From: a virus
Virus record (IMG/VR): IMGVR_UViG_3300025466_000015
Direction: 5' to 3' (one strand)
Length of the DNA: 64,000 nt
Shown here piece by piece: positions 11,552 through 55,585 of the stretch (positions are counted from its first letter, which is position 1; the number at the start of each line of letters is the position of its first letter). Below the pieces are notes generated by a model, which saw only the letters and a list, made by a program, of their open reading frames with translations, made no database searches and was not told where the DNA came from. A program made the position numbers and the translations under genes.

Positions 11552-11812
11552 ATGGCGCTGTTAACCAATATTTTATCACCAGACACTACTGTAAAGTATG
11601 TCAAAGAAAATGCTGAAGCTGATTGGGAAGTTTATGTTCCAACGGGTGATGATGATCCTAATCTAGCATTAGAAGATTATTACAAAGTTGTTGAACATGA
11701 AAAGCCACATGAGTCTTTTGACATTGATGGAATTTGGAAGACAGTCGCTTTTGTTCACATCAATAGGACTTTAAGGCAAGTTCATTTACACTACGGAGTC
11801 GATAGAATATGA
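11552..11812 (+). CDS. Hypothetical protein
   Basis: ORF in operon, ATGA overlap with next gene. Confidence 0.55.
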   Translation: MALLTNILSPDTTVKYVKENAEADWEVYVPTGDDDPNLALEDYYKVVEHEKPHESFDIDGIWKTVAFVHINRTLRQVHLHYGVDRI

Positions 11813-13194
11813 CGTTACAATCATCTGGCGCAATATCTTTATCTGATGTAAACGTAGAACTAGGCAGGTCCAGTACAGCAACAATTTGTATGAATTGTTC
11901 TTCGGTCAGATGTTTGTTTGGCGTTTCTTCAGGCGCCATTAGTATGAGTAGTGGTTATGGTAAATCCAGCATACCAAAAGGTTCGGGTACATACACAGCT
12001 CCAGGATGTTATACATTTGTTGTTCCACAGAAAACTACACGTTTGAGTGCGCTTGCTATTTCAGGCGGATCAGCTGGAAGCAAACCATACTCATACTTTT
12101 ATCCGTGTTATAGTATAGGTACTTGGACTTACTATCCTTACGCTGGTTATGTTACCGGCGGAACTGGAGGTTACGGTGGCGGCATATCTTATAGAAATAA
12201 TTTTTCTGTTGCTACCGGACAAAATCTGACTGTTCGAGTTGGAGCTTGTCAAGGTTCATCTGGAGGCCAGGGAAATTATAGTATGGTTAACGCTAGTGGT
12301 GCAACTAATGGATATCCCGTATATGCGGCTACAAATACATGTTTCCCACTTTTTTATAGTGGTACCTCCGCATCAACTTATACATCAAGCGGAAAACAAG
12401 CAGGTTGTGGATCTTCAAAACAAGCTGGCGGTACAGCTAGAGGCATAACTCCTTGGGTAGGAATAGGCGGCGGTGGAGGTGGAGTTGCAGGATCTAGTTG
12501 TGCTGGTTATTTTGTTTGTGGATACTGTTCGTATAATGGATTTTATCAGTACTATCAGCCTTGTCACTCTTATGGTGCCGGCGGATCAGTTATGGGCAAA
12601 GGATGTGGATCATTTTCTCAATATACTGGCAATTGTTCGCAATGGGTATGTTTTTACTATTCCGGAGGTTATGGAGGTTATCCATTATATGGAAAACATG
12701 GATATGGCCGCAATGGTGGTTCCGCTGGAGGATCAGCACCAAATAAAGCAGACGGAAGATGGTCTGGATGTTATTGTTATTACACAGGATACAAACCTGG
12801 TTCAGGGCCAGGTGGTGGAGGAGGAAGTAATGCTACTTATGGATTCAATAATAGTGGATCTTATAATCCTCCAGGAGCCGGACCCTGTGTTTATTGCAAC
12901 GGTCACGGCGGTGGAGGCGGTTCTGGTGGTTCCGGAGGTGGTAACGGATCTTATAGTGTAGGAGGTAATGGTGGAGGTTACGGTGGCGGAGGAGCAGGAG
13001 CTTCGGCAGCTCTATCGCCGTGCAATCCTTACTATAATTACACAGCTGGAACTTATCTTTATGGTAATAGTAACTGTGTTTGTTTTTATAATAATAGGGG
13101 AATACATTTTGGCGTTGGCGCAAGCGGAACGGTTAGAATTGTATACCCAGGTTGTACAAGATCATATCCATCAACAAATGTAGGATGTCCATAA
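11809..13194 (+). CDS. Gly/Cys/Tyr-rich adhesin-like fibre-tip protein
   Basis: N-terminal LQSSGAISLSDVNVELG module; polyglycine tracts; C-terminal GASGTVRIVY. Confidence 0.6.
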   Translation: MTLQSSGAISLSDVNVELGRSSTATICMNCSSVRCLFGVSSGAISMSSGYGKSSIPKGSGTYTAPGCYTFVVPQKTTRLSALAISGGSAGSKPYSYFYPCYSIGTWTYYPYAGYVTGGTGGYGGGISYRNNFSVATGQNLTVRVGACQGSSGGQGNYSMVNASGATNGYPVYAATNTCFPLFYSGTSASTYTSSGKQAGCGSSKQAGGTARGITPWVGIGGGGGGVAGSSCAGYFVCGYCSYNGFYQYYQPCHSYGAGGSVMGKGCGSFSQYTGNCSQWVCFYYSGGYGGYPLYGKHGYGRNGGSAGGSAPNKADGRWSGCYCYYTGYKPGSGPGGGGGSNATYGFNNSGSYNPPGAGPCVYCNGHGGGGGSGGSGGGNGSYSVGGNGGGYGGGGAGASAALSPCNPYYNYTAGTYLYGNSNCVCFYNNRGIHFGVGASGTVRIVYPGCTRSYPSTNVGCP

Positions 13195-42988: not shown

Positions 42989-43365
42989 GTCCATTCGATT
43001 ATGTAGACTTAATTCTACACAAAAAGAAAGAAGACGATGACCTAGAATTTGGAGATTATGCTCCTTTTCTGGTGAATCGTTCTTTATCCTATCACTTGGA
43101 TTGTATTCTCTATGTCAATGAGATGAATATCAAACCTAATATTGATAAAGACCTTCAATACCGCTATCTTCTAAATAGTATTAGACCAATGAAACGGAAG
43201 TTCGAGCCGTGGCAGAAATCATTGGTGGACAAAGATATCCAGTGTGTTAAAGAGTTTTTTGGTTACAATAACCAGAAAGCTAAAGATGCGTTGAGTATTT
43301 TAACCGATGAACAAATCGCTGATATAAAAATAAGAATAGACAAAGGCGGAGTGAAGAAGTTATGA
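42985..43365 (+). CDS. gp62: Clamp loader small subunit gp62
   Basis: PFLVNRSLS, NEMN, KGG; synteny gp44-62-regA. Confidence 0.9.
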   Translation: MSPFDYVDLILHKKKEDDDLEFGDYAPFLVNRSLSYHLDCILYVNEMNIKPNIDKDLQYRYLLNSIRPMKRKFEPWQKSLVDKDIQCVKEFFGYNNQKAKDALSILTDEQIADIKIRIDKGGVKKL

Positions 43366-43769
43366 TTGATATAAAAGATTTGGTTGAAATTACCTTAGGT
43401 CAGGAAGATGACTTTCTTAAGGTGAGAGAAACATTAACAAGGATTGGTGTAGCCTCAAAGAAAGATAGAACACTATACCAGTCTTGCCATATTCTCCATA
43501 AAAAAGGACAATATTATGTGGTTCATTTCAAGGAACTATTTGCACTTGATGGCAAACCCACCGACATTACCGAAAACGACCTATCTCGTAGGAATGCTAT
43601 TGTTAAGTTATTGGAGGATTGGGAACTGGTTAAAGTTGTTCGGAAAGAACAAATAGAGACACCAGCCCCTATTTTCTTGTCACAGATTAAGATTCTGTCA
43701 CACAAGGAAAAGAAAGATTGGCAACTTGTACCGAAATATAATATCGGTAAGAAGCCTCAATCAGTATAA
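43362..43769 (+). CDS. regA: Translational repressor RegA
   Basis: DDFLKVRETLTRIG, LYQSCHILHK, HFKELFALDG. Confidence 0.96.
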   Translation: MIDIKDLVEITLGQEDDFLKVRETLTRIGVASKKDRTLYQSCHILHKKGQYYVVHFKELFALDGKPTDITENDLSRRNAIVKLLEDWELVKVVRKEQIETPAPIFLSQIKILSHKEKKDWQLVPKYNIGKKPQSV

Positions 43770-43841
43770 ATACTAATATGATTATGTGCCGTGCTCTCTG
43801 AGGCGGCAATTTTTTAAACTTGCTTATTTAAGGAGTCTATT

Positions 43842-44279
43842 ATGACAAGCTTACTATTTCCAAAATTGGATAACCTATACGCCAACATGATTGGGTTTGA
43901 TGAGACTATTGGTATGTTAAAGGCAGCCGCCAATGACGTAGCCAAATATGCTCCAACTTACCCACCATACAATATCAAACAAGTCAAAGATAACAAGTAC
44001 GTCATTGAGATGGCAGTTGCTGGTTTCACTAAGGCTGATATTGAGATTACTATGGAAGGTAACAAAATGGTTATCAAAGGTTCTGCCAAGGACGATGACG
44101 ACCAAACTTACTTACATAAAGGAATCGCTAACCGTGCTTTTGAAAGAGCATTCACTCTTAAAGATACCATCGAAATCAAAGATGCCGAATTGGCAAATGG
44201 TATGTTAAAAGTCTGGTTAGAAAACATGGTAAAGGCTCAAGATGCTATCAAGAAAATCGGTATCAAAACTAGAGACTAA
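43842..44279 (+). CDS. Small heat-shock protein Hsp20
   Basis: YPPYNI, IEMAVAGF, HKGIANRAF, NGMLKV; TATAAATA at 43765. Confidence 0.92.
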   Translation: MTSLLFPKLDNLYANMIGFDETIGMLKAAANDVAKYAPTYPPYNIKQVKDNKYVIEMAVAGFTKADIEITMEGNKMVIKGSAKDDDDQTYLHKGIANRAFERAFTLKDTIEIKDAELANGMLKVWLENMVKAQDAIKKIGIKTRD

Positions 44280-44342
44280 TTGGTGGCCCGTTTCAGACGA
44301 GGAATGGGATAGATTAAACTATCCTGAAAAATTCAAAAACAA

Positions 44343-44654
44343 ATGAAATACCTAATCAAAGGCATCACCTCGGAAGGTAAAACTTTTAGGCCAAGTGATT
44401 GGTCGGAAAGACTTTGTTCCGTGTTGTCCTATTGTACACCAGTTAAGAAGACCGTCTCCAATGCGCCAGGATACTCTCCATATGTCAAACCAGTCATGGT
44501 TGATGACATTAGATGTGTATTGGTAGACTCTAAACTGGTGGATGTAGAACCAAGAGCCTTGGATTTTGTATTGAATTTTGCCGAGGATAATGACTTAATT
44601 GTAATTGAGGATTACCAAAAAGTGGTAAACATCCGAGAATTCATGGTTGCCTAA
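44343..44654 (+). CDS. DUF3579-like protein
   Basis: IKGITSEGKTFRPSDWSERL, YSPYVKP, FVLNFAEDNDL. Confidence 0.75.
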   Translation: MKYLIKGITSEGKTFRPSDWSERLCSVLSYCTPVKKTVSNAPGYSPYVKPVMVDDIRCVLVDSKLVDVEPRALDFVLNFAEDNDLIVIEDYQKVVNIREFMVA

Positions 44655-44678
44655 AAACAACTTGTGGTGATTATCCTA

Positions 44679-44706
44679 AGGGGCCTCTTGACAGGCCCCT
44701 TTTTTT
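44679..44706 (+). terminator. Rho-independent terminator overlapping a sigma70 promoter
   Basis: AGGGGCCT-CTTGAC-AGGCCCCT-TTTTTT; TTGACA at 44688 and TATAAT at 44711, 17 bp apart. Confidence 0.8.
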
Positions 44707-44727
44707 GTCTTATAATAGACTTTTATT

Positions 44728-44949
44728 ATGGAGGAAACTGTGGTGATTCTAGACAAACATTTTGAAAAATTGAACAAACGAGCTTTTGATCCAGCAAACA
44801 AAGCGGATTTGGCGATCTTTAAAGAGTTCCTGGAGACTGGTCGTTGGGGTGCTAACGGATGTCCTTTCCTTTTAACTTGGCCTTACCTGACAATTCCTGA
44901 TATGATTAAGGACAAGGTTACCAAACATGTACTCAAAGTTGAGGCTTGA
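44728..44949 (+). CDS. Hypothetical protein
   Basis: ORF after promoter; W..GCPFLLTWPYLTIPDMIKDK. Confidence 0.6.
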   Translation: MEETVVILDKHFEKLNKRAFDPANKADLAIFKEFLETGRWGANGCPFLLTWPYLTIPDMIKDKVTKHVLKVEA

Positions 44950-45386
44950 TGAAACCCAAGTTTATTCGTTATTACATGGACATTGCCAAGCGTACAGCTG
45001 AATTAAGTTCAGCTAAACGCCTACAGGTTGGTGCTATCATTGTTAAGAATGACCGTATTGTGTCGATTGGATACAATGGTACTCCATCCGGTTGGACCAA
45101 TGTTTGTGAAGATGAAAACTATAAAACCAAAATTGAAGTTATTCACGCTGAGGCCAATGCAATTGCTAAGTTGGCAAGGTCTACGGAGTCTGGAGAAGGC
45201 GCTGTCATGTTTTTGACACACGCACCTTGTATGGATTGTGCTAAGCAGATATACACAGCTGGCATCCGTAAAGTGTTTTTTGACAGTCATTATCGTTCTA
45301 CGGATGGAGTTGTGTTTCTCAACAACTGCAACCTGGAGGTAGAACAAGTAAATGAAACATTGGAAACAAATAGTCACTTACAGTAA
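44946..45386 (+). CDS. dCMP deaminase
   Basis: GYNG, HAEANAI, PCMDC. Confidence 0.92.
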   Translation: MMKPKFIRYYMDIAKRTAELSSAKRLQVGAIIVKNDRIVSIGYNGTPSGWTNVCEDENYKTKIEVIHAEANAIAKLARSTESGEGAVMFLTHAPCMDCAKQIYTAGIRKVFFDSHYRSTDGVVFLNNCNLEVEQVNETLETNSHLQ

Positions 45387-45490
45387 GTATATGATTTGTC
45401 TAGTGATTTTTGTATGGAAGATGTGGAAAGAATACTTAAACAATAAATAGCAAGGAGTCATCATCGGGTCAACTAATTAAAGGAGATTAA

Positions 45491-46003
45491 ATGAGATTAA
45501 AAGTAGTTAATTGTCCCGATAAAGATTTCAAACCTATTGTAGAAAGAGCAGCTTCTTTCTTTGCCAAAGAATTAATACCCAATACTAGAGTCCGTAACCA
45601 TTGTTTTACCAAGATTAGATTCAATGCTAAGATTTTGGAATATGGTTATGCTAGTGTGGAAGACTATAACACAAGAAATCAACCAAGAGAATTTCTAATA
45701 GAGATTCATCCAGGTATTGGTGCCAGAGATATATTGTCAACCATAGCACATGAGATGGTTCACATTAAACAATATATTGATGGTGAGTTAAATGAAGAAA
45801 TGTCTTACTGGAAAGGTAAGAGAGTAGATTCGGATAAAATGGAATATTGGTATTCACCATGGGAAGTAGACGCCAATGGATATGAAGTTGGTTTGATAAC
45901 CAAGTTTGCCGTTGCTGAATGTCTTTGGGAAGTCTTAGATGGATTTAAAAATCCAGCAACTCCTATAGTTTCTATACCAATAAAATGGAAAAAGAGAAAA
46001 TAA
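45491..46003 (+). CDS. HEXXH zinc metallopeptidase-like protein
   Basis: TIAHEMVHIKQY, PWEVDA; SD AAGGAG. Confidence 0.75.
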   Translation: MRLKVVNCPDKDFKPIVERAASFFAKELIPNTRVRNHCFTKIRFNAKILEYGYASVEDYNTRNQPREFLIEIHPGIGARDILSTIAHEMVHIKQYIDGELNEEMSYWKGKRVDSDKMEYWYSPWEVDANGYEVGLITKFAVAECLWEVLDGFKNPATPIVSIPIKWKKRK

Positions 46004-46019
46004 ACGCCTATATACTAAC

Positions 46020-46118
46020 ATGAATAACATAAAACACTCCTTTAATCAGCCGATGTATCACACAGAGTCAATTTGTGCCGATACGCTGTGGCTCGTCAAA
46101 GGGGTTTGTACCTGTTAG
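46020..46118 (+). CDS. Candidate attenuator leader peptide (32 aa: MNNIKHSFNQPMYHTESICADTLWLVKGVCTC)
   Basis: Translated by hand; its 3' end carries GGGGTTTGTA, complementary to the 5' arm region of the downstream terminator. Confidence 0.6.
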   Translation: MNNIKHSFNQPMYHTESICADTLWLVKGVCTC

Positions 46119-46146
46119 AATATAAAAGTTAAAACAAAAGTACTAC

Positions 46147-46178
46147 AAACCCCAGACCTAAAAGCTCTGGGGTTTTTT
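46147..46178 (+). terminator. Rho-independent terminator (candidate attenuator) before the tRNA array
   Basis: AAACCCCAGA / TCTGGGGTTT stem with T run. Confidence 0.8.
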
Positions 46179-46230
46179 GTTGTCCGAATACAACACCAGT
46201 ATTGACAAAGGTCATCGAACCATATACAAT
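46178..46230 (+). promoter_or_regulatory. Sigma70 promoter with upstream palindrome
   Basis: TGTTGT-N6-ACAACA, 6 bp, TTGACA-17-TACAAT. Confidence 0.75.
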
Positions 46231-46265
46231 ACACACTTGTTCTTTAAAAAATTAGATTGTATTTT

Positions 46266-46341
46266 ACCCTCTTAGCCAAGCTGGTAAGGCATCGGATTTT
46301 GATTCCGACATGCGGTGGTTCGAGTCCATCAGGGGGTGCCA
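46266..46341 (+). tRNA. trnQ: tRNA-Gln(TTG)
   Basis: Cloverleaf, anticodon loop TTTTGAT, encoded CCA. Confidence 0.92.
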
Positions 46342-46408
46342 TATAAAAACACATTTGCAACCACATGGGAGTGAGATATCCAAGGGGAGTGTGTTTCTAT
46401 ATGACAAT

Positions 46409-46499
46409 GGAAGATAATGCAGCTGGGTAGGCCGGCGACCAGCCTTGAAAACTGGGTTCTGAGAAATCGGATGGGGTTCGACTCCTCTGTCTTCCGCCA
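46409..46499 (+). tRNA. trnS: tRNA-Ser(TGA)
   Basis: Loop CTTGAAA, long variable arm, GCCA end; D arm atypical. Confidence 0.85.
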
Positions 46500-46516
46500 A
46501 TTAAAAGGAGTTTATT

Positions 46517-47080
46517 ATGCCTAGTGTATTTCTTGTAAGTGACACACATTTTGGTCATCATGGAGTGTGTCGTTTCACTGGTAAAGATGGTGTTACAAAG
46601 CTTAGGCCATGGGACAATCCAGATGAGATGGATGAAGAAATGGTCAAGCGTTGGAACGAAAGAGTAAAGCCAACTGATAAAGTTTATCATCTTGGTGATG
46701 TGGTGATTAATCGTAAATCTCTTAATATTATGCGTAGGCTTAACGGAGACAAAGTTCTTATTAGAGGTAACCATGATATCTTTAGAGATAAAGAATACTA
46801 TGAACACTTCAGAGAGCTCCGTGCTTATCATGTTATGAGAGGTATGATTCTTTCACACATTCCACTTCATACCGATAGTATTCAAAGATTTGGTACCAAT
46901 ATTCACGGTCATACCCATGATAGGCGTGTAATGATTGGTAATGAAATTGATATCAGATACCATTGTGTATGTGTGGAACAAACAGACTACACTCCTATTC
47001 TTTTTGAAGATGTTGTGAAACGTATTCAAGCAGAAGGTGGTGAAGTTGATTTCAGACAGCATGGAAATAGAGCCATGTAG
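46517..47080 (+). CDS. Calcineurin-like metallophosphoesterase
   Basis: SDTHFGH, HLGD, GNHD, HGHTH. Confidence 0.9.
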   Translation: MPSVFLVSDTHFGHHGVCRFTGKDGVTKLRPWDNPDEMDEEMVKRWNERVKPTDKVYHLGDVVINRKSLNIMRRLNGDKVLIRGNHDIFRDKEYYEHFRELRAYHVMRGMILSHIPLHTDSIQRFGTNIHGHTHDRRVMIGNEIDIRYHCVCVEQTDYTPILFEDVVKRIQAEGGEVDFRQHGNRAM

Positions 47081-47171
47081 GAGATTTGGCCGAGAGGTCT
47101 AAGGCAGCAGGTTGCTAACCTGTCGTATTGAGTAATCAGTACCGTGGGTTCGATTCCCACAGTCTCCGCCA
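47080..47171 (+). tRNA. trnS: tRNA-Ser(GCT)
   Basis: Loop TTGCTAA, long variable arm, GCCA. Confidence 0.93.
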
Positions 47172-47176
47172 GTTAA

Positions 47177-47254
47177 GGTTAGGTGCCAGAGAGGTCCAAT
47201 GGAACAGTCTGCAAAACTGTAAAACCGTGGGTTCAAATCCCACCCTAACCTCCA
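47177..47254 (+). tRNA. trnC: tRNA-Cys(GCA)
   Basis: Loop CTGCAAA, U73, CCA. Confidence 0.93.
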
Positions 47255-47362
47255 TTAATAGTTGACCGGAATAAAGTAATACTAAAGTATTAGGTTGCCA
47301 TTTCAACCAGTTCTGTTACAATACATTTATCGGTTGAGAAATCAATTGATAAAAAAAGTGAA

Positions 47363-47413
47363 GTTGTAGAAATACAACAGGATGGTTGACAAATTATCCC
47401 AATCTGGTATAAT
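47363..47413 (+). promoter_or_regulatory. Sigma70 promoter with upstream palindrome
   Basis: GTTGT-AGAAAT-ACAACA, 6 bp, TTGACA-16-TATAAT with extended -10 TG. Confidence 0.7.
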
Positions 47414-47446
47414 AGAGTCTTGTTCAGTTAATTAAGGAGAAAAATT

Positions 47447-47548
47447 TTGGAATGTTTAAAATGTAGATTTTGGCACTGGCCAACAAATTACACAAAAGGT
47501 GCTCCATGTGATCCTAAATTCATTCCAGTTCCCGTAAAAACGGAATAG
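47447..47548 (+). CDS. 33-aa microprotein MECLKCRFWHWPTNYTKGAPCDPKFIPVPVKTE
   Basis: TTG start after AAGGAG, own promoter; C-x2-C-x3-H-x10-C. Confidence 0.5.
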   Translation: MECLKCRFWHWPTNYTKGAPCDPKFIPVPVKTE

Positions 47549-47560
47549 AAAACAAAAAAA

Positions 47561-47616
47561 GAGTGTTGTCATCGTACAACACTCTGGTTGACAAAGGTAA
47601 TTACCTATGTTATAAT
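47561..47616 (+). promoter_or_regulatory. Sigma70 promoter with upstream palindrome
   Basis: GAGTGTTGT-CATCGT-ACAACACTC then TTGACA-17-TATAAT. Confidence 0.8.
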
Positions 47617-47636
47617 TGTTCTTTAAATTGTAAGTT

Positions 47637-47711
47637 GCTCGGTTCGTCTATCGGTTAGGACACCGCCCTTTCACGGCAGTAAGACCAGTTCGATTCTGGT
47701 ACCGAGTACCA
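47637..47711 (+). tRNA. trnE: tRNA-Glu(TTC)
   Basis: Loop CTTTCAC, CCA. Confidence 0.92.
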
Positions 47712-47920
47712 TACTAAAATACATTAGGTTACCAACTCTAGTAGGTGACTTTTTAGGTTGAAATGCGGGCCGCTGCATACCTTTAAAGTTACATGAAGCC
47801 TTCCGATGGCGCTAGAATCAGTTGAAGTGTAATGTGGAGATTGTCTTATCGGCAGACGAAGCCGTGAGAAGCTGGATGAAGTTCCAGAACGACAATCACA
47901 TCCTAATGTATTTCAGTATG
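47712..47920 (+). ncRNA. Candidate ~210-nt structured RNA
   Basis: Long terminal stem plus internal helices, between tRNAs. Confidence 0.55.
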
Positions 47921-47924
47921 GTGT

Positions 47925-48046
47925 CATTTGTTTTGCTGACGTAAGCCATGGGGGAAACGTCAACCCTGAGTAACTGCGTATATAAACGGTACGTCTAGCT
48001 AGCAATTCCGTTGAGCGTCAGCAAATAGTGCGTCAGCAAAACAAAT
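47925..48046 (+). ncRNA. Candidate ~120-nt structured RNA
   Basis: Perfect 17-bp terminal inverted repeat CATTTGTTTTGCTGACG. Confidence 0.5.
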
Positions 48047-48121
48047 GGTCTCATAGTATAATGGTTAGTACGGTGGCTTGTCACGCCACTAATAGGAGTT
48101 CGATTCTCCTTGGGACCGCCA
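48047..48121 (+). tRNA. trnD: tRNA-Asp(GTC)
   Basis: Loop TTGTCAC, GCCA. Confidence 0.93.
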
Positions 48122-48125
48122 ATTT

Positions 48126-48225
48126 TTAAAATGTGTGTAGCAGTTGAGTCTGCCATAAAACACGGTTCGCCTGTAGCACGGTACTCAGCCCGACATAAAG
48201 AACAGTTACTGACCACACATTTTAA
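48126..48225 (+). ncRNA. Candidate ~100-nt structured RNA
   Basis: 12-bp terminal stem TTAAAATGTGTG/CACACATTTTAA, internal hairpin and possible pseudoknot. Confidence 0.5.
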
Positions 48226-48235
48226 TTTGTTTTAT

Positions 48236-48370
48236 GCTCAGAAACATCCACGCTACGGTTCGCAACCGTGGGTCCACGGTGAGTTCGCTACTCATGGCAG
48301 TTGGAGAGGTAAACACCCCCGCCACAGGGGGTCTCCGGTGAAAGAAGGTGGGATTCCTTCGTGAGCGCCA
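48236..48370 (+). ncRNA. tRNA-like RNA with expanded body
   Basis: GCTCA/TGAGC acceptor-like stem, T-arm-like GAAGG-TGGGATT-CCTTC, GCCA end, three internal hairpins. Confidence 0.55.
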
Positions 48371-48374
48371 ATTT

Positions 48375-48450
48375 GGAATCGTAGCTCAGTTGGCAGAGCA
48401 GCGGACTTTTAATCCGTAGGTCAGGAGTTCAAATCTCCTCGGTTCCACCA
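48375..48450 (+). tRNA. trnK: tRNA-Lys(TTT)
   Basis: Loop CTTTTAA, CCA. Confidence 0.95.
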
Positions 48451-48457
48451 GCTTTAT

Positions 48458-48532
48458 GGAGAGATTAGTTTAGTGGTAAAACCACGGGTTGTGATTCCGT
48501 TATCACGGGTTCGATTCCCGTATTTCTCCCCA
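48458..48532 (+). tRNA. trnH: tRNA-His(GTG)
   Basis: Loop TTGTGAT, G-1:C73. Confidence 0.92.
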
Positions 48533-48539
48533 AGATTAT

Positions 48540-48614
48540 TCCACAGTAGCACAGCGGTAGTGCAGTTGGCTGTTAACCAATTGGTCGTAGGTTCAATCCC
48601 TGCCTGTGGAGCCA
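48540..48614 (+). tRNA. trnN: tRNA-Asn(GTT)
   Basis: Loop CTGTTAA, GCCA. Confidence 0.95.
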
Positions 48615-48621
48615 AGTAAAT

Positions 48622-48706
48622 GGATGTGCCGCCGTAATGGTATGGCAGGAGACTGTAAATCTTCCGGTTTACACCACAGTTGGTTCGATCCCAACCACAT
48701 CCACCA
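48622..48706 (+). tRNA. trnY: tRNA-Tyr(GTA)
   Basis: Loop CTGTAAA, variable arm, ACCA. Confidence 0.92.
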
Positions 48707-48710
48707 TTTT

Positions 48711-48786
48711 GCCCCTATAGCTCATCTGGTAGAGCAACTGATTTGTAATCAGTAGGTGCCGTGTTCGAGTCATGGTGGGGGCACCA
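48711..48786 (+). tRNA. trnT: tRNA-Thr(TGT)
   Basis: Loop TTTGTAA, ACCA. Confidence 0.95.
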
Positions 48787-48792
48787 ATTTTT

Positions 48793-48869
48793 CGGAGTGT
48801 AGCACAGCCTGGTAGTGCGCTTGCTTTGGGAGCAAGAGGTCCAAGGTTCGAATCCTTGTACTCCGACCA
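48793..48869 (+). tRNA. trnP: tRNA-Pro(TGG)
   Basis: Loop TTTGGGA, CGG/CCG-ACCA acceptor. Confidence 0.95.
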
Positions 48870-48963
48870 TTTCATATGAAGGTGTAAATTCTCTACTTGT
48901 AGTCCAAAATTCTTTGGCCTTGTAGGGTTCTGTAAAAATGCCTTTATTCATTTCCGTATTTAT

Positions 48964-49037
48964 GGGGGATTAGTATAATGGGATTACGGCAGCTTTGCAA
49001 GTTGTTTATAGGAGTTCGATTCTCCTATCCTCCACCA
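48964..49037 (+). tRNA. trnA: tRNA-Ala(TGC)
   Basis: Loop TTTGCAA, G3:U70. Confidence 0.93.
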
Positions 49038-49042
49038 TTCAT

Positions 49043-49117
49043 AGTGACGTAGCTTAACGGTAGAGCAAATCCTTCATACGGATTAGGTTGGGGGCTCGAA
49101 TCCCTCCGTCACTACCA
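49043..49117 (+). tRNA. trnM: tRNA(CAT), probably elongator Met
   Basis: Loop TTCATAC, paired 1:72. Confidence 0.8.
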
Positions 49118-49119
49118 AT

Positions 49120-49194
49120 CGGTCCTTAGTAAAATGAATATTACACAGAGCTACGAACTCTGAAGTGGGAGTTTGATTCTCTCAGGACCGGCCA
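49120..49194 (+). tRNA. trnR: tRNA-Arg(ACG)
   Basis: Loop CTACGAA; D-loop GA and T-loop TTTGATT variants. Confidence 0.85.
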
Positions 49195-49200
49195 ATATAT

Positions 49201-49274
49201 ACTCTCATAGTTAAATGGTATAACAGACGCTTGATAAGCGTCCATTACAAGTTCAATTCTTGTTGGGAGTACCA
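49201..49274 (+). tRNA. trnI: tRNA-Ile(GAT)
   Basis: Loop TTGATAA, ACCA. Confidence 0.93.
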
Positions 49275-49276
49275 AT

Positions 49277-49351
49277 ATCTCGTTAGTGTAACGGTAACAT
49301 GCTGGTCTCCAAAACCATGCGATTGCGGTTCGAATCCGTAGCGGGATACCA
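49277..49351 (+). tRNA. trnW: tRNA-Trp(CCA)
   Basis: Loop CTCCAAA, CCA end. Confidence 0.9.
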
Positions 49352-49352
49352 A

Positions 49353-49967
49353 TTATTCTGAAACTGATTCAGCAGGATGCCATTCTGTTGGTGTCACACC
49401 TTCAAGCAAGGTGGATAAATCTAAACCATAATAATAGTCTTCTAATATTTCTTTCATATAATCAAGAACCTCTATTTTGTGTTTGAATTGTTTTAATTCA
49501 CCTTCACGGAATTTAATTTGATCCTGTATGATACTTTTAATGAAGTTTTCACCTTCTTTTTTACGGTTAACCTTATTTAAAATTTTATTGAGCTTGATTA
49601 TAAAACCATTACATGTTATAATGTTATCTTTAATTTGGCCAACGTTATCTTGCATTTCTCTTTTCATTACAAAGATTAAATCATCATGGTCTGGATTAAT
49701 TTTTGTAATGCAATGAGTTGTTAAACCTGCTAACTCTTGTAACGCTTCTGTTCTAATCGGAATATCTTCTTCTATTTTGCCTGTTGCATCATAGTCGGCT
49801 CTTCTGGATGGATCACTAAGTACTTCGTAAGCAAGTTTAATTTTTTTAAAAGTGGTCTCATCACCACCTTTATCAGGATGATGTTGTTGAGCCAAAGCTC
49901 TGTATCTTTGTTTGATTTCATCAAAGGTGCATCTTGGAGATAGTCCTAGTTCATCGTATAAGTTCAT
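49353..49967 (-). CDS. J-domain (DnaJ-like) protein
   Basis: LYDELGL, HPDKGG, AYEVLSD..RR..YD; TATAAATA on minus strand at 49992-49999. Confidence 0.88.
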   Translation of the reverse strand: MNLYDELGLSPRCTFDEIKQRYRALAQQHHPDKGGDETTFKKIKLAYEVLSDPSRRADYDATGKIEEDIPIRTEALQELAGLTTHCITKINPDHDDLIFVMKREMQDNVGQIKDNIITCNGFIIKLNKILNKVNRKKEGENFIKSIIQDQIKFREGELKQFKHKIEVLDYMKEILEDYYYGLDLSTLLEGVTPTEWHPAESVSE

Positions 49968-50010
49968 TTTATTGATTTAAAAGTTGTAAGATATTTATAA
50001 AGGTGGTTAT

Positions 50011-50493
50011 ATGAGAAAATTTGATATAGAAGAAGTTAAATCATTTCTTGCTTCACAAGGACCAGATACTAAAGTTTATCTTGGTGCTGATTCTGAAAGA
50101 GTAAGAGTCAATGGTGTTTGGTATGCAGACTACGCTTTGGCCGTTGTTGTTCATATTGATGGCCGCCATGGTTGTAAAATTTTTGGTTATGTTGAACGAG
50201 AAATTGATTACGACCACAAGAAAAGTAAACCAGCAATGAGATTAATGACCGAAGTTTATAAAGTTTCGGATTTATTTCAATCACTTGCTGAAGTATTGGA
50301 AGACTTCCATGTTGAAGTGCATCTAGACCTGAACAAATCGGATCTATTTGGTTCATCATGTGTAGTACAACAAGCAATTGGTTATATCAAAGGTACATGT
50401 AATATGACACCAATGGTTAAACCAGATGCACCTGCGGCTTCTTTTTGTGCTGATAGATTAAAAAGAATTCTAACAGAACAAGAAGCAGTTTAA
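50011..50493 (+). CDS. RNase H-like YkuK/DUF458 family protein
   Basis: VYLGADS, RLMTEVYK, EVHLDLN, VKPDAPAASFCAD. Confidence 0.75.
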   Translation: MRKFDIEEVKSFLASQGPDTKVYLGADSERVRVNGVWYADYALAVVVHIDGRHGCKIFGYVEREIDYDHKKSKPAMRLMTEVYKVSDLFQSLAEVLEDFHVEVHLDLNKSDLFGSSCVVQQAIGYIKGTCNMTPMVKPDAPAASFCADRLKRILTEQEAV

Positions 50494-50512
50494 TTTTTTT
50501 ATAAGGATTTTT

Positions 50513-50770
50513 ATGAGTTATATTCCATTGAATGGTAAAATTATTGTTGAACGTATTGAAGCATCAAAAGAAACAGCTTCAGGTATTATTTTAAAATCTT
50601 CTGGTGAACCAGATAGAGCAAAAGTAATTACTGTTGCTGATAATTTGGATGAAGTTTCAATTAATGATGAGTTGCTTGTTAATTGGAATGGAGCCGTAAA
50701 ATTAGAAAACGATATTTACAGTATTGACATTGAACATGTTGTTGCTGTATACGATGCCTCGTTAGTTTAA
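50513..50770 (+). CDS. groES: GroES-like co-chaperonin
   Basis: PLNGKIIVER, ETASGIIL mobile loop. Confidence 0.85.
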   Translation: MSYIPLNGKIIVERIEASKETASGIILKSSGEPDRAKVITVADNLDEVSINDELLVNWNGAVKLENDIYSIDIEHVVAVYDASLV

Positions 50771-50829
50771 TGGTAGAACACCGCCCTTACAAGACGGTTA
50801 CGGCAGTTCGATTCTGTCACGAGGTACCA
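50756..50829 (+). tRNA. trnV: tRNA-Val(TAC)
   Basis: Loop CTTACAA, ACCA; overlaps groES 3' end. Confidence 0.88.
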
Positions 50830-50830
50830 T

Positions 50831-50906
50831 GCAACCTTAGCTGATGTGGTCATAGCGGCGGTTTGAAGAGCCGTGGAAGTTGGTTCGATTCCAACAGGTT
50901 GCACCA
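50831..50906 (+). tRNA. trnF: tRNA-Phe(GAA)
   Basis: Loop TTGAAGA, ACCA. Confidence 0.9.
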
Positions 50907-50964
50907 AATAATGTAATACTTGTTTTATATAAATATATCATGTATACCATTTTTAAGGATAGAA

Positions 50965-51426
50965 ATGAGACAAGATATAATAGATAGAAAACAAGATATA
51001 CTCATTTGGATTAACGAAAATCAATCTAAATCTTTTATTTGCAAACAACTTGGATGTAAACCAGAAACACTTGAAAGTTATCTAAAAAAGTTTGGTGTTG
51101 TTTATAAAGGCAACATGGGACTAAAGGGTAAAAAAACAGACAGTAAATATGTTCCAGCTTTGGATTATATCAAAGGTTCTTTTGTTTCCGCACACAAACT
51201 AAAATTAAAATTAATCCGTGATGGTATAAAAGAGCATAGATGTGAATTGTGTAGCACAATTGAATGGATGTCTCAAAAAGTTCCTTTAGAGCTTGACCAC
51301 ATAGACGGAAATCATTATAATAATGAATTGTCTAACCTGAGAATTATTTGTCCAAATTGTCATGCACAACAGGATACTAATTCAGGTAAGAATGTAAAAC
51401 ATCGTAAAAAAATATTGCCCCTTTGA
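50965..51426 (+). mobile_element. HNH endonuclease inside the tRNA array
   Basis: CELC, LELDHIDGNHYNNELSNLRIICPNCH; TATAAATA at 50928. Confidence 0.85.
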
Positions 51427-51501
51427 TGTAACTGGTAGCCATGCGGTCCTTAGAAGTCCGTGCCGAAAGGTGTGAGGGTTCGAATCCCTTGGGGGGCACC
51501 A
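51417..51501 (+). tRNA. trnL: tRNA-Leu(TAG)
   Basis: Loop CTTAGAA, long variable arm, ACCA. Confidence 0.9.
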
Positions 51502-51505
51502 ATAT

Positions 51506-51582
51506 GTGGTTGTGATGGAATTGGTATACATATCAGACTTAAAATCTGAGTTTTGTGGGTTCGAGTCCCACCTTCCACACCA
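51506..51582 (+). tRNA. trnL: tRNA-Leu(TAA), short variable region
   Basis: Loop CTTAAAA; two T-T mismatches in acceptor stem. Confidence 0.82.
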
Positions 51583-51586
51583 TGAG

Positions 51587-51664
51587 GCCCCTGTGGACAA
51601 ATTGGCAAAGTCGTTTCTCTCAAAAGGAAAAATTCTCTCGGTTCGACTCCGAGCGGGGGTACCA
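51587..51664 (+). tRNA. trnL: tRNA-Leu(CAA), short variable region
   Basis: Loop CTCAAAA, ACCA. Confidence 0.85.
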
Positions 51665-51736
51665 GTAATAATGTAATAAAAGTAATAAGAGTAATATCCT
51701 GTGTAGGATGTTAAGTGCTGATGTATAATAACATCT

Positions 51737-52018
51737 ATGAAAAACACTATATTACTCCTATCATTTTTAGCAACTGCCTGTGGCGGAGGTGAACCAAATA
51801 CTTCCGTAACCAAACCATGTGTCAGTAACATTGTAGCAACTATGTCTGAGATGACCTCGCCATTTTTTGAAGGTATGGGTACGCCTGATAGCATTACCAC
51901 ATTTCCTATAATAAATGGTCAACATAGTATTGAATATGATTTTAAATCACTACATAAGAGACTAACATTTATTTGGACAGACCAAGGTGTTTGCCAAGAA
52001 ATAGAAACAACAATTTGA
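51737..52018 (+). CDS. Putative lipoprotein
   Basis: MKNTILLLSFLATAC lipobox signal. Confidence 0.65.
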   Translation: MKNTILLLSFLATACGGGEPNTSVTKPCVSNIVATMSEMTSPFFEGMGTPDSITTFPIINGQHSIEYDFKSLHKRLTFIWTDQGVCQEIETTI

Positions 52019-52093
52019 CTGCCGTTAGTATAATGGATAATACAGCTGCCTTCTAAGCAGTCAATAGAGGTTCGATTCCTCTACGGCGGACCA
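52019..52093 (+). tRNA. trnR: tRNA-Arg(TCT)
   Basis: Loop CTTCTAA, ACCA. Confidence 0.93.
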
Positions 52094-52121
52094 ATAAATA
52101 GTAATAGTTAAGGAGAAACTA

Positions 52122-52454
52122 ATGTCATATATTATTCAACTCGTAAAAAATAAACCGGAAGACAAACAATTTTTTAGATATGGTTATAAAGATTCCGATG
52201 CGAATACTATTGTGAAAAATATTAATAGTTGGATCAATAGTCAACCTGGTCTTATTAGTCGTAACACGCCGCCTCCTGCAGATTTTGATATTGCAAATTC
52301 TAATATAATAATTGAAAGTTTTGAATTTAAATCAAATGTTTTTGCTGAAATATTTCAAGCACAAACCGCTTCAAATCCGGATTGGCAATTACGATTAAGT
52401 TACGAAGCAAACAATTCAATTACATCAACTTGGCAAGTGGTTGAAAATACATAA
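52122..52454 (+). CDS. Hypothetical protein
   Basis: SD AAGGAG, ATAAATA upstream. Confidence 0.6.
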   Translation: MSYIIQLVKNKPEDKQFFRYGYKDSDANTIVKNINSWINSQPGLISRNTPPPADFDIANSNIIIESFEFKSNVFAEIFQAQTASNPDWQLRLSYEANNSITSTWQVVENT

Positions 52455-52456
52455 TT

Positions 52457-52531
52457 GCTCCGATAGCTTAATGGTAAAGCAACCGACTCATAATCGGTTG
52501 AGTCTGTGTTCAATTCACAGTCGGAGCACCA
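52457..52531 (+). tRNA. trnI: tRNA(CAT), probably Ile2 (lysidine)
   Basis: CCGA-CTCATAA-TCGG anticodon arm resembles Ile2. Confidence 0.75.
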
Positions 52532-52549
52532 AGTTTACCACAAGGACGC

Positions 52550-52578
52550 TTGACAAGAGCGCCTATATAAGATACAAT
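52550..52578 (+). promoter_or_regulatory. Sigma70 promoter for the Gly tRNA sub-cluster
   Basis: TTGACA-17 bp-TACAAT, 12 bp before tRNA-Gly(GCC). Confidence 0.75.
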
Positions 52579-52590
52579 CTAATTTTAGTT

Positions 52591-52665
52591 GCGGGTATGG
52601 TGCTAGTGGTAACACAAGACCTTGCCAAGGTTTAGTTGAGAGTTCGATTCTCTCTACCCGCTCCA
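52591..52665 (+). tRNA. trnG: tRNA-Gly(GCC)
   Basis: Loop TTGCCAA, GCGGG/CCCGC-TCCA. Confidence 0.93.
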
Positions 52666-52672
52666 GTTTATT

Positions 52673-52746
52673 GCGGATTTAGTTTAATGGTAGAACGGGA
52701 GATTTCCAATCTTTCGGCAACAGTTCGATTCTGTTAATCCGCTCCA
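52673..52746 (+). tRNA. trnG: tRNA-Gly(TCC)
   Basis: Loop TTTCCAA, TCCA. Confidence 0.93.
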
Positions 52747-52751
52747 GTTAT

Positions 52752-52816
52752 GCGGGGGTTTCAAACAACATTGGGGTCCACCTGATGTCCTAGTGAGAAT
52801 CTAGGCACCCGCTCCA
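52752..52816 (+). ncRNA. D-armless tRNA-Gly-like RNA (65 nt)
   Basis: GCGGG/CCCGC-T-CCA acceptor, T arm CCTAG-TGAGAAT-CTAGG, 7-bp arm with loop GGTCCAC, no D arm. Confidence 0.65.
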
Positions 52817-52835
52817 ATTTATTATGGAGTTCATA

Positions 52836-53027
52836 ATGTCTGATGGTGGCAAAGGAAGTAATCCAAGACCTTTTAGTGTAGACCAAGACACTTATGGTAA
52901 AAACTTTGACGCCATCTTCCGTAAACCTACACCAAAAGAATTAGATGATGAGGCAGCTGAAAAAGAAGCTTTTGATAAATTATCGCAGGGTGGTGAAACA
53001 GTATCACGAAGGACTCATAATCCTTAG
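52836..53027 (+). CDS. Small hypothetical protein (MSDGGKGSNPRP...)
   Basis: SD GGAG; 3' end runs into tRNA-fMet. Confidence 0.55.
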   Translation: MSDGGKGSNPRPFSVDQDTYGKNFDAIFRKPTPKELDDEAAEKEAFDKLSQGGETVSRRTHNP

Positions 53028-53057
53028 TTCTTGGTGCGACTCCAGGCTCTGCAACCA
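52984..53057 (+). tRNA. trnM: tRNA-fMet(CAT), initiator-like
   Basis: C1:A72 mismatch, loop CTCATAA, ACCA. Confidence 0.8.
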
Positions 53058-53100
53058 GTTCATATAAATATCCAGTTATCGTTTAACTTGGATATAGAAA

Positions 53101-54537
53101 ATGCCTGTAAAAAGTTTTGTAGAATTTGAAAAAGAAAAATACCAAAAGCACATTGACTTTTATGGTAAAATTCTAATTATCGGTTATGGCTCTGTTGGAC
53201 AAGCCATTTTACCAGTTATTTTAAGACACATTGCTGTTGATCCAAAAAACATCACGGTACTAGAACGTGATAATCATAGACACATTTTTATTCACCGCCA
53301 CGGTGGTTCTGGCTGTCACTATGTCAGAAAAGAGATTCTTCCAAGTAATTACAAAAAAGTATTATCAACCTATGTTGGTGAAGGTGATTTAATTATCAAT
53401 TGCTCACTTAATATTGATGCACAAGCATTACTAGAGTGGTGTATGGAAAATGATGTGATGGAAATTGATACATCATTAGAAAGATGGGAACATCATCCAG
53501 ACGAAACAATTCCAAAGTTGTCTGAACGAACATTGTACCATACACATAAAGTTGTTCGTGAAGCTATGATGCAACATGTTGATGGTCCTACATGCTGTGT
53601 GACTCATGGTGCAAATCCAGGTTATGTTACTCATTTGACCAAAAGAGCACTTCTTAATCTAGCCAAGAAACGTGGCAAAAAAGTTGAGATGCCAACAGAC
53701 CGTGAAGAATGGGCTCAGTTGATGAAATCACTAGATGTTAAAGTGATTCATATTGCTGAAAGAGACCAACAAGTTATTAATCAACCAAAAACAAAAGGTG
53801 AATTTACCAACACATGGTCTTGCGAAGGTTTTTGGGCTGAAGGTAGAGCGCCTGCCGAGATGGGCTGGGGCACACATGAAGACAGACATCCAGAAGGCGG
53901 TAAGTCACAAGGTAATGCAGCTTTCTTAATGCAACCTGGCGCTTCTGTATTGATGAAGTCTTGGGTACCAGATGGTGGACAATACAATGGTTACTGTATT
54001 CAACATTCAGAGTCAGTAACAATATCAGAATACTTCACAACAAAACGTGGTGACTTTAGACCATCCGTTTATTACGTTTATCAACCATGTGATTCGGCTA
54101 TTGCTTCGCTACATGAGATGCGTGGTAACGAATTAGATATTCAAAAAGAACAACGTATTCTCAAAGATGAAATCGTTGACGGCATGGATGAATTGGGTGT
54201 ATTATTGATTGGTGACGGCTTCTGCTTCTGGCACGGTTCACAATTAGATATTCACGGGGCTAGAGAATTAGTGGAAGGTGAAAATGCAACATCAATGCAA
54301 GTTGCAGGTTCTATGTTGGGTGCCATCGTTTGGATGATTAAAAATCCGAGAAATGGTTACACAGAACCAGAAGAATTGCCGTTTGAAGAAATCTTGGCCA
54401 TCGGTGACCAATATTGGGAACCATTGGTATCTGTAATGTCTAACTGGACACCAAGCAAGGACACTAACAGTCTATTCTATAAAGAATTTGATGAAAGTAA
54501 TCCTTGTAAATACGAAAACTTTAGAGTCTGGACTTAA
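53101..54537 (+). CDS. hss: Homospermidine synthase
   Basis: IIGYGSVG NAD motif, HGANPG, HIAERD, NTWSCEGF, GMDELGVL, NATSMQV. Confidence 0.9.
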   Translation: MPVKSFVEFEKEKYQKHIDFYGKILIIGYGSVGQAILPVILRHIAVDPKNITVLERDNHRHIFIHRHGGSGCHYVRKEILPSNYKKVLSTYVGEGDLIINCSLNIDAQALLEWCMENDVMEIDTSLERWEHHPDETIPKLSERTLYHTHKVVREAMMQHVDGPTCCVTHGANPGYVTHLTKRALLNLAKKRGKKVEMPTDREEWAQLMKSLDVKVIHIAERDQQVINQPKTKGEFTNTWSCEGFWAEGRAPAEMGWGTHEDRHPEGGKSQGNAAFLMQPGASVLMKSWVPDGGQYNGYCIQHSESVTISEYFTTKRGDFRPSVYYVYQPCDSAIASLHEMRGNELDIQKEQRILKDEIVDGMDELGVLLIGDGFCFWHGSQLDIHGARELVEGENATSMQVAGSMLGAIVWMIKNPRNGYTEPEELPFEEILAIGDQYWEPLVSVMSNWTPSKDTNSLFYKEFDESNPCKYENFRVWT

Positions 54538-54827
54538 TTAGGCACAGCCACAACTCTCTTGACTCCAGTTTGTGGGTCAATCATTTCTTGCCAATGATAA
54601 CCAAACGGTGGTGCTTGCACTACTGGTTGTTGAACAATAACTGAAGGTTGTTCCACATAAACTGGTGGACGAGCTAATTCATAACCAACAACACCACCAA
54701 TCAAAGCTGGTGCAACCCAACCCATTCCGTTTCCACGATAACAACAATATCCACCATGATGATGCCATTGTGCATCAGCAGTTCCTAAAATTGTTAAAAG
54801 TGATAAAGCTAGTAGTGATTTTTTCAT
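54534..54827 (-). CDS. Secreted Pro/Gly-rich small protein
   Basis: Signal peptide MKKSLLALSLL..ADA; GWVAPALIGGVVGY. Confidence 0.65.
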   Translation of the reverse strand: MKKSLLALSLLTILGTADAQWHHHGGYCCYRGNGMGWVAPALIGGVVGYELARPPVYVEQPSVIVQQPVVQAPPFGYHWQEMIDPQTGVKRVVAVPN

Positions 54828-55585
54828 TATAGTCTCCTTCTGTGTATATCGTAAAGATAAGTAACCTCATAAATTCTTGTATGAGTGTTTCTGCTTCCTA
54901 ATACGATAATGATAGAATTATTTAGTTTAGTCACAATACATCCACCAGAAGCAGAGATCCATCCTGTCTTACTTATAGTAAAATCTTTTTTACCAACGAG
55001 TGGATTTGTATTATGATATACAAGTTTTCTTTTCTTTACGATAACTTCAACGGATGTTTTTTTATCTGCTTCTACTATAAATGAATAATTAGCTGCAGCC
55101 TTAACTAGATTAACCAATTGTTTGGCTGAACTGGTATTTCTCTTATCAAGACCTGTTGGTTCATATACGATAGAATCAACCATATTCAAACTTTGTAATT
55201 TTAAATTCATCACATATACACAGACACCAAAACCACCAGGGTATTGTTCGCATAGAGTTTGTGCAGCTCTGTTATTACTATTGACTAAAGCCAATTCTAA
55301 TAAAATTCTTCTTGGCAATTGTGAAGGTAAGGCATCTCGAATTTTAGTACTGAGAGGTACTAATTCATCCATATCTTGTTTGGCATCCAACACAACCATT
55401 GCCACAATCAATTTGCTGATACTGGCTATTGGTTGTATTCTATCTTCATTAGACGCATCAAGAACGGTATTGGTATCTTCGTTTGTGATTAACCAAGACT
55501 TTGCGGTAATTGGTTGCGCTTGGACATTTCCGAGATTAAAAAGTAGGGAGAATAAACATAATATAGAAAAAACAATGCGTAGCAA
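54827..55585 (-). CDS. Serine D-Ala-D-Ala peptidase, family S11 (PbpG/PBP7-like)
   Basis: Signal peptide; SxxK (ASISK), SxN (SNN), KTG; PTGL. Confidence 0.88.
   Translation of the reverse strand: MLRIVFSILCLFSLLFNLGNVQAQPITAKSWLITNEDTNTVLDASNEDRIQPIASISKLIVAMVVLDAKQDMDELVPLSTKIRDALPSQLPRRILLELALVNSNNRAAQTLCEQYPGGFGVCVYVMNLKLQSLNMVDSIVYEPTGLDKRNTSSAKQLVNLVKAAANYSFIVEADKKTSVEVIVKKRKLVYHNTNPLVGKKDFTISKTGWISASGGCIVTKLNNSIIIVLGSRNTHTRIYEVTYLYDIHRRRL

Follow-up and report, generated by a model that had tools for sequence, protein, structure and literature searches.

A putative leader-peptide transcription attenuator at the head of a phage tRNA array

A short open reading frame (ORF), an antiterminator and an intrinsic terminator are found immediately upstream of the tRNA array of an uncultured freshwater T4-like phage. 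The DNA analysed, termed the window, is the whole 64,000-nucleotide stretch of IMG/VR record IMGVR_UViG_3300025466_000015. Judged by comparison of related sequences and by folding models, this unit is probably a working ribosome-mediated (leader-peptide) transcription attenuator. In the proposed mechanism, a strand within codons 6–8 of the untranslated RNA (region 1) would hold the 5′ strand of the antiterminator (region 2), the terminator would form and transcription would stop. Slow movement or stalling of a ribosome over about codons 4–16 would free region 2, which would then pair with region 3 before the 3′ arm of the terminator is made, and RNA polymerase would read through. The polymerase that reads through would pass a boxA-like element and enter the tRNA genes. 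A ribosome running fast to the stop codon would itself cover region 2, and the terminator would form. The leader has no codon run and contains almost all of the amino acids; what it senses is therefore most likely how fast decoding proceeds in general, and with it the supply of any one of many charged tRNAs.

Leader, antiterminator and terminator in the window

The features of the unit and of the start of the array are as follows.

46001–46003, + strand: stop codon of the upstream gene, 16 nt before the leader ATG
46008–46016, + strand: CTATATACT, a −10-like remnant of promoter P1, with no usable −35 in the window
46020–46118, + strand: leader ORF of 32 codons and a stop, uninterrupted in each of the 56 distinct relatives
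46036–46043, + strand: region 1, ACTCCTTT, predicted anti-antiterminator strand, codons 6–8 (MFE and partition function)
46048–46093, + strand: central hairpin within the ORF, codons 10–25 (folding)
46098–46110, + strand: region 2, antiterminator 5′ strand, of which AAAGGGGT pairs with region 1 and GGGGTTTGTA with region 3
46144–46153, + strand: region 3, TACAAACCCC, antiterminator 3′ strand, with CCCC in common with the terminator 5′ arm
46150–46178, + strand: intrinsic terminator, 7-bp stem, 9-nt loop, T6, −12.0 kcal/mol
46179–46194, + strand: palindrome GTTGT-N6-ACAAC, operator-like, 7 bp before the −35 of P2
46202–46230, + strand: promoter P2, TTGACA-17-TACAAT, 11/12 matches, kept in most relatives
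46234–46253, + strand: rrn-type boxA-like element, CAC plus TTGTTCTTTAAAAAATT, resembling the E. coli rrn boxA oligonucleotide
46266–46341, + strand: tRNA-Gln(UUG), first gene of the array (tRNA search)

Every sequence feature named in a preliminary description of this DNA is present where that description had placed it. The leader ORF contains 19 different amino acids, Arg being absent, and 26 distinct codons among its 32, the same counts as first given. The terminator consists of the arms CCCCAGA (46150–46156) and TCTGGGG (46166–46172) followed by T6 at 46173–46178; a consensus terminator scan missed it only because the scan had a loop limit of 8 nt and the actual loop is 9 nt. Near the end of the ORF, GGGGTTTGTA (46101–46110) is the exact complement of TACAAACCCC (46144–46153), and four C residues of the terminator 5′ arm are taken up by the antiterminator. 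The two stems are mutually exclusive, as had been proposed, and the complementarity covaries in relatives. The layout of a trp-type attenuator recognized in the preliminary description is real and is conserved among these relatives.

The best partner of region 3 inside the ORF gives −19.0 kcal/mol, compared with −8.6 ± 2.2 kcal/mol for 300 dinucleotide shuffles (z −4.8, reached by 0/300), and the region as a whole folds with a z of −5.1. The leader codons had been considered unusual for the phage. They are indeed atypical when compared with the phage genes (CAI 0.44 vs 0.70 ± 0.08; GC3 0.52 vs 0.26), but the G+C requirement of the stems can account for the rare codons. The presence of 19 amino acids in 32 residues has a P of about 0.004–0.007 under an iid null and of 0.0016 among real protein windows, and at least 19 amino acids are also found in 4 of 163 random small ORFs of the window. 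In the window alone the amino-acid breadth is modest; it is convincing only across the family.

Related units, covariation and folding

The ORF–antiterminator–terminator unit is represented in IMG/VR by 134 instances with 56 distinct sequences. Relatives were collected in two ways: a 170-aa protein encoded upstream led to 80 IMG/VR loci, and an 18-nt boxA-like motif after P2 led to 114 more. The order of elements is P1, start, an ORF of 31–46 codons, a spacer of 22–48 nt, terminator, palindrome, P2, boxA-like element, tRNA-Gln(UUG) and the remainder of the array, with the palindrome, P2 and the boxA-like element present in most units. P1 is in most units a sigma70-type promoter consisting of TTGCCA or TTGACA, 17 bp and TATAAT. 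Two types of start are found. In one (at least 22 distinct units) the transcript is leaderless, with the ATG 6 nt past the −10; in the other, an untranslated region of roughly 30 nt carries a Shine–Dalgarno (SD) sequence GGAG, AGGA or GAAAG.

The unit is closely tied to tRNA genes. tRNA-Gln(UUG), the first array gene, starts 31–120 nt past the terminator in all 53 distinct units that have enough downstream DNA. In L010–L017 other genes lie between the 170-aa gene and the array, and the unit stays with the array. Promoters inside the arrays have the boxA-like motif and lack the leader. The upstream 170-aa protein, which has an HExxH motif, has distant relatives only in T4-like myoviruses (DLP6, Cr30, Melnitz and S-SM2).

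One lineage, L238 (IMGVR_UViG_3300044619_001464, minus strand), has no leader ORF at the position directly before its tRNA array; the −10 remnant there precedes the terminator by no more than about 10 nt, and the palindrome and P2 come next. In a distant relative, L290, a possible leader unit is located at 11618–11990 (minus strand), and this phage also encodes a tmRNA with the tag ANDSVYALAA.

When 50,697 phage records were searched with DNA of this region of the window, of the L018 unit and of L290, no copy was found in a cultured phage, and only tRNA-Glu matched. A tblastn search with a leader peptide returned noise only. In bacterial and archaeal genomes a single pattern scan gave no sign of a host copy; it produced three matches, and the two that were examined are unrelated coding sequence with no nearby tRNAs. 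Metatranscriptome contigs from two runs covered tRNA parts alone and are uninformative on the leader.

In all 18 members that were found first, region 3 pairs best with the final codons of the ORF, at −13 to −21 kcal/mol and with z values of −2.3 to −6.1. In L036, L247, L246 and L009, whose terminators are very different, region 2 differs to match. When whole units were simply aligned with MAFFT, RNAalifold recovered only the central hairpin and a portion of the terminator. As G/C runs are out of register in that alignment, alignment-free duplex tests and an alignment of the 3′ part were used. In the alignment-free test on 20 lineages, cognate duplexes have a mean of −17.7 kcal/mol and non-cognate duplexes one of −13.4 kcal/mol; 0/20000 permutations were as low (P < 5e-5). 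In a MAFFT alignment made without reference to structure, 93% of the cells form pairs, compared with 28–60% when the partner is slid. Two-sided changes occur in three antiterminator pairs, with U-A replaced by G-C in 8 rows. The antiterminator covariation score is 0.179 vs 0.093, a value reached by 0/500 shuffles, and the terminator stems also covary among relatives.

These sequence comparisons argue that the antiterminator complementarity is under selection. As had been predicted, the relatives keep a short ORF with high amino-acid diversity and a sequence that varies between lineages, together with antiterminator and terminator stems that covary. The preliminary description had also held that retention of the terminator without the ORF would speak against attenuation; this is seen in one lineage (L238). 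The antiterminator overlaps the terminator 5′ arm by 3–8 nt and in most members by 3–4 nt. Where the overlap is only 3–4 nt, the outcome would depend on kinetics, and the energies given here are those of an equilibrium model.

For the window, the predicted energies are −15.5 kcal/mol for the antiterminator hairpin, −12.0 kcal/mol for the terminator and −27.7 kcal/mol for a hairpin in the ORF closed by 46036–46043/46098–46105. The unconstrained MFE of the full naked RNA, which is in the terminator state, is −44.4 kcal/mol, and it is −36.1 kcal/mol with the antiterminator enforced. Partition functions were calculated for nine lineages with a ribosome footprint of 28 nt positioned codon by codon. 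As naked RNA, seven of the nine form the terminator (P 0.93–1.0), the very divergent L036 included. With the A-site at about codons 4–16, the antiterminator peaks at P ≥ 0.8 in six lineages and the terminator falls to 0.00–0.29; with the A-site over region 2 near the ORF end, the ribosome-mask model favours the terminator again. Folding of both states had been proposed as a check, and seven of the nine lineages switch as modelled, although L076 does so only weakly in the ribosome-mask model, and in L037 and L002 the terminator is not favoured as naked RNA.

The fourth region, in which codons 6–8 pair with the antiterminator strand, is predicted by these models. The helix between regions 1 and 2 displays no covariation (cognate −11.9, non-cognate −11.9, P 0.47), and single region 1:2 duplexes are mostly no better than shuffles. 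The stem of the central hairpin is kept in relatives with one- and two-sided changes, and this hairpin is possibly an RNA polymerase pause hairpin or a spacer hairpin.

Promoters, the boxA-like element and the tRNA array

The separate sigma70 promoter that had been noted downstream of the terminator is P2. Together with the boxA-like element it is situated 24 nt past the terminator in the window. The palindrome adjoins the T-tract of the terminator and is absent from lineages that do not have P2; it belongs to P2 and not to the switch, and may serve as the operator of a dimeric regulator. In its commonest form among relatives, the boxA-like element agrees with the E. coli rrn boxA oligonucleotide at 17/20 positions (PMC2724277), and the window version has an extra T. 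Relatives also have the motif behind promoters internal to the array. By its sequence the array seems to copy the antitermination leader of a host rRNA operon.

Five lineages (L079/L080, L270, L203, L234 and L247) have no promoter between the terminator and the first tRNA, and in L270 and L203 the boxA-like element directly follows the T-tract. As there is no intervening promoter, read-through must feed the first tRNAs in these lineages. L238, which is without the ORF, keeps the terminator and P2; the terminator is therefore also a plain insulator, and the switch is dispensable where P2 exists. In the window the switch would add to the tRNA expression driven by P2 rather than control it alone, and it may contribute little. 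A related strain is represented in freshwater DNA (run X1) by a contig in which 46195 is joined to 46265, so that the 69 nt with P2 and the boxA-like element are skipped. This contig, which differs at 11 positions, may represent a P2-less strain like L079 or L270.

The array had been described as one of 27 tRNAs. ARAGORN finds 26, and the 27th is a Ser(UGA)-like gene with an Rfam score below threshold. This tRNA-like gene at 46409–46495, missed by ARAGORN, scores 32 bits in Rfam as tRNA-Sec-like; read by eye, its anticodon is UGA, its variable arm is long and CCA is encoded. It is probably the 27th tRNA, Ser(UGA).

The window copy is an edge case of the unit. No SD sequence is found for the window leader ATG, as was first pointed out, and the ATG is 3 nt after TATACT. 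There is no usable −35 box for P1 in the window; the best candidate has 4/6 + 4/6 matches and is absent from the output of the promoter scan. As P1 is decayed, window transcripts probably come from the upstream operon, whose promoter is at 44688. The leader may be translated by re-initiation, to judge from the position of the ATG, which is 16–17 nt past the upstream stop across the clade and remains so behind a different gene in L006.

The suggestion that CTATATACT gives rise to a late leaderless transcript did not hold: the late motif of the phage is TATAAATA, and CTATATACT is the remnant of a sigma70-type −10, which in relatives is part of TTGCCA-17-TATAAT. Copies of the T4-type late promoter motif TATAAATA are present on the + strand at 24921, 26645, 33810, 43765, 50928, 53063 and 63886. 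Of its 8 copies 7 are on the + strand, several of them just before ORF starts, and the total count is no higher than chance. CTATATAMT was tried as a repeated phage promoter motif and rejected, as it has two copies, the number that chance predicts.

The unit of the window clade might be a decayed copy, in which the terminator only ends the upstream operon (44728–46003) and insulates P2, and in which the ORF and the complementarity are inherited and no longer regulate. The absence of a −35 and an SD sequence, with the ATG so close behind TATACT, is in keeping with this reading, as are an amino-acid count of 17–19 in the clade vs 20 elsewhere and a strong P2 with boxA directly downstream. L238 provides an example of leader loss with the terminator and P2 retained. 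However, the clade (the window, L001, L002, L005 and L006) keeps the ORF open and the 10-bp antiterminator intact or nearly so. It also displays compensatory changes in the terminator stem (CCCCAGA to CCCCAC, the 3′ arm following) and a central hairpin that is remodelled yet kept. The constant distance of the ATG from the upstream stop, which would allow re-initiation, points in the same direction. We consider decay of the window copy unlikely, and a working attenuator remains the preferred reading.

The leader reading frame and comparison with known systems

The leader ORF is open in all units, and the two off-frames hold 2–4 stops. Indels in the ORF are in threes, and the variable sites at codon positions 1, 2 and 3 number 26, 26 and 50. 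The reading frame is evidently translatable, as far as these patterns of variation tell. Codon variants comprise 28 synonymous and 54 non-synonymous changes, and identity between lineages is 23–48%. This weak constraint on the peptide suits a leader better than a functional protein.

It is nevertheless conceivable that the ORF is an ordinary small-protein gene and that the pairing only stabilizes the 3′ end of its mRNA. Within subfamilies the peptide is recognizably conserved: one Trp is invariant, and short motifs and a C-terminal tail recur. The unit also has a promoter and a terminator of its own. We regard such a gene as improbable. Purifying selection is weak by the counts above, and the complementary pairing is incompatible with the terminator and changes along with it. 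The unit also heads tRNA arrays in 53/53 cases and is the sole route to the first tRNAs in five lineages. No predicted-protein homologue of the 41-aa leader was found within the limits that word matching and length set on the search, the 32-aa peptide of the window being under the minimum length.

It is more doubtful still that the transcript from P1 to the terminator (about 160–220 nt) constitutes a small structured RNA that may act in trans, with the ORF secondary: the strong folding (z −5.1), the conserved hairpins and the precedent of the attenuator-derived rnTrpL, as outlined in PMC6614838, would fit, but the frame is open in 56 distinct sequences with conserved initiation signals and with third codon positions varying most, the amino-acid breadth is specific to the translated frame, no Rfam family matches, and a small RNA would be compatible with the attenuator reading rather than replace it.

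The breadth of the leader as an attenuator sequence is best seen across lineages. Most have 19–20 different amino acids in 31–46 residues, and no leader has a run of one regulatory codon. The expected count is 14–16 from the phage proteome and 15.4–17 from the base composition of the leaders themselves. A null that keeps the residues conserved with the reference leader gives 16.6–18.2 for divergent lineages, with per-lineage P values from 0.002 to 0.9. Combination by Fisher's method (by hand) of the worst member of each of nine lineages yields about 0.0015, and these P values overstate independence since the lineages are related. The mean is 19.4 amino acids in frame vs 16.1 in the off-frames, and in 14 of 15 deep lineages the translated frame has the most, L247 being a tie. 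As breadth in frame exceeds that of the off-frames, base composition and RNA structure do not explain it. The breadth is not strict, with 17–19 amino acids in the window clade and 16 in L246. Position swaps of H and R were considered as compensation that keeps all amino acids and were rejected; base-pairing constraints explain them at least as well.

A further proposal, which we put forward only tentatively, is that selection keeps all 20 amino acids in the leader. Shortage, uncharging or cleavage of any one tRNA would then stall the ribosome and open an array that covers all 20. This would constitute a self-correcting supply loop and also a sensor and response against the loss of host tRNAs through anticodon nucleases or host tRNA decay.

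The trpL, hisL, leuL, thrL and multivalent ilvL attenuators of enterobacterial amino-acid operons resemble the phage unit in having a short leader ORF, an intrinsic terminator and an antiterminator that shares a strand of the terminator, with an upstream holding strand and a fold set by the position of the ribosome, both of them predicted in the unit. The phage unit differs from these trp-type leaders in that nearly every amino acid is found once or twice and regulatory codon runs are absent. It would also control tRNAs rather than biosynthetic enzymes, is phage-borne and often has a leaderless start.

At erm and at leader-controlled resistance loci of Bacillus subtilis, a ribosome stalled on a leader ORF remodels the downstream RNA and switches the gene on. 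Attenuators of the erm type sense drug-bound ribosomes, often via specific arrest peptides. The T-box would be similar in function to the phage unit, as it couples terminator read-through to tRNA state; however, it binds uncharged tRNA directly and needs no ORF, and the phage unit is not a member of this class. A cmscan search of 43000–55000 (E up to 1) found no Rfam leader family (Trp_leader, His_leader, Thr_leader, Leu_leader and others) or T-box, only tRNAs and chance matches. The match at 46091–46178, to BTnc005, has 19 bits against a threshold of 175. The rrn leaders are similar to the start of the phage array in having CAC and a boxA-like sequence, and some rrn operons have tandem promoters. 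They differ in being without a leader peptide or attenuator.

The closest parallel in logic appears to be the whiB7/wblC attenuator of Actinobacteria, with which the phage unit would share logic alone. It also has a diverse uORF and a Rho-independent terminator with an antiterminator, and it senses general translation stress (PMC10274678). Experiments on whiB7 have established that the composition of the uORF decides which amino-acid starvation is sensed (PMC10274678). The whiB7 uORFs are 25–40% alanine and the output is a transcription factor (PMC10274678), whereas the phage leaders have one to few Ala, a tRNA output and no sequence relation to them.

No published case of an attenuator, or of such a regulatory principle, was found for tRNA genes in the literature searched. 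Phage tRNA arrays are usually discussed as aids to codon usage or as a means of replacing host tRNAs that decay or defence has removed. A switch of this kind would help to fill a gap, namely how a phage sets the amount of its tRNAs. If the attenuator reading is correct, the unit would represent a feedback switch that senses decoding speed directly and responds through tRNA genes, and the idea from whiB7 that a broad leader is a general translation sensor would be extended to a virus. The family is large and offers natural variants: units with and without P2, units with leaderless or SD-led starts, and one in which the ORF is deleted.

Elsewhere in the region searched with cmscan, a weak match to the ROSE_3 thermometer (23 bits, threshold 43) is located at 43785–43847, just before the hsp20 gene of the phage (43842–44279).
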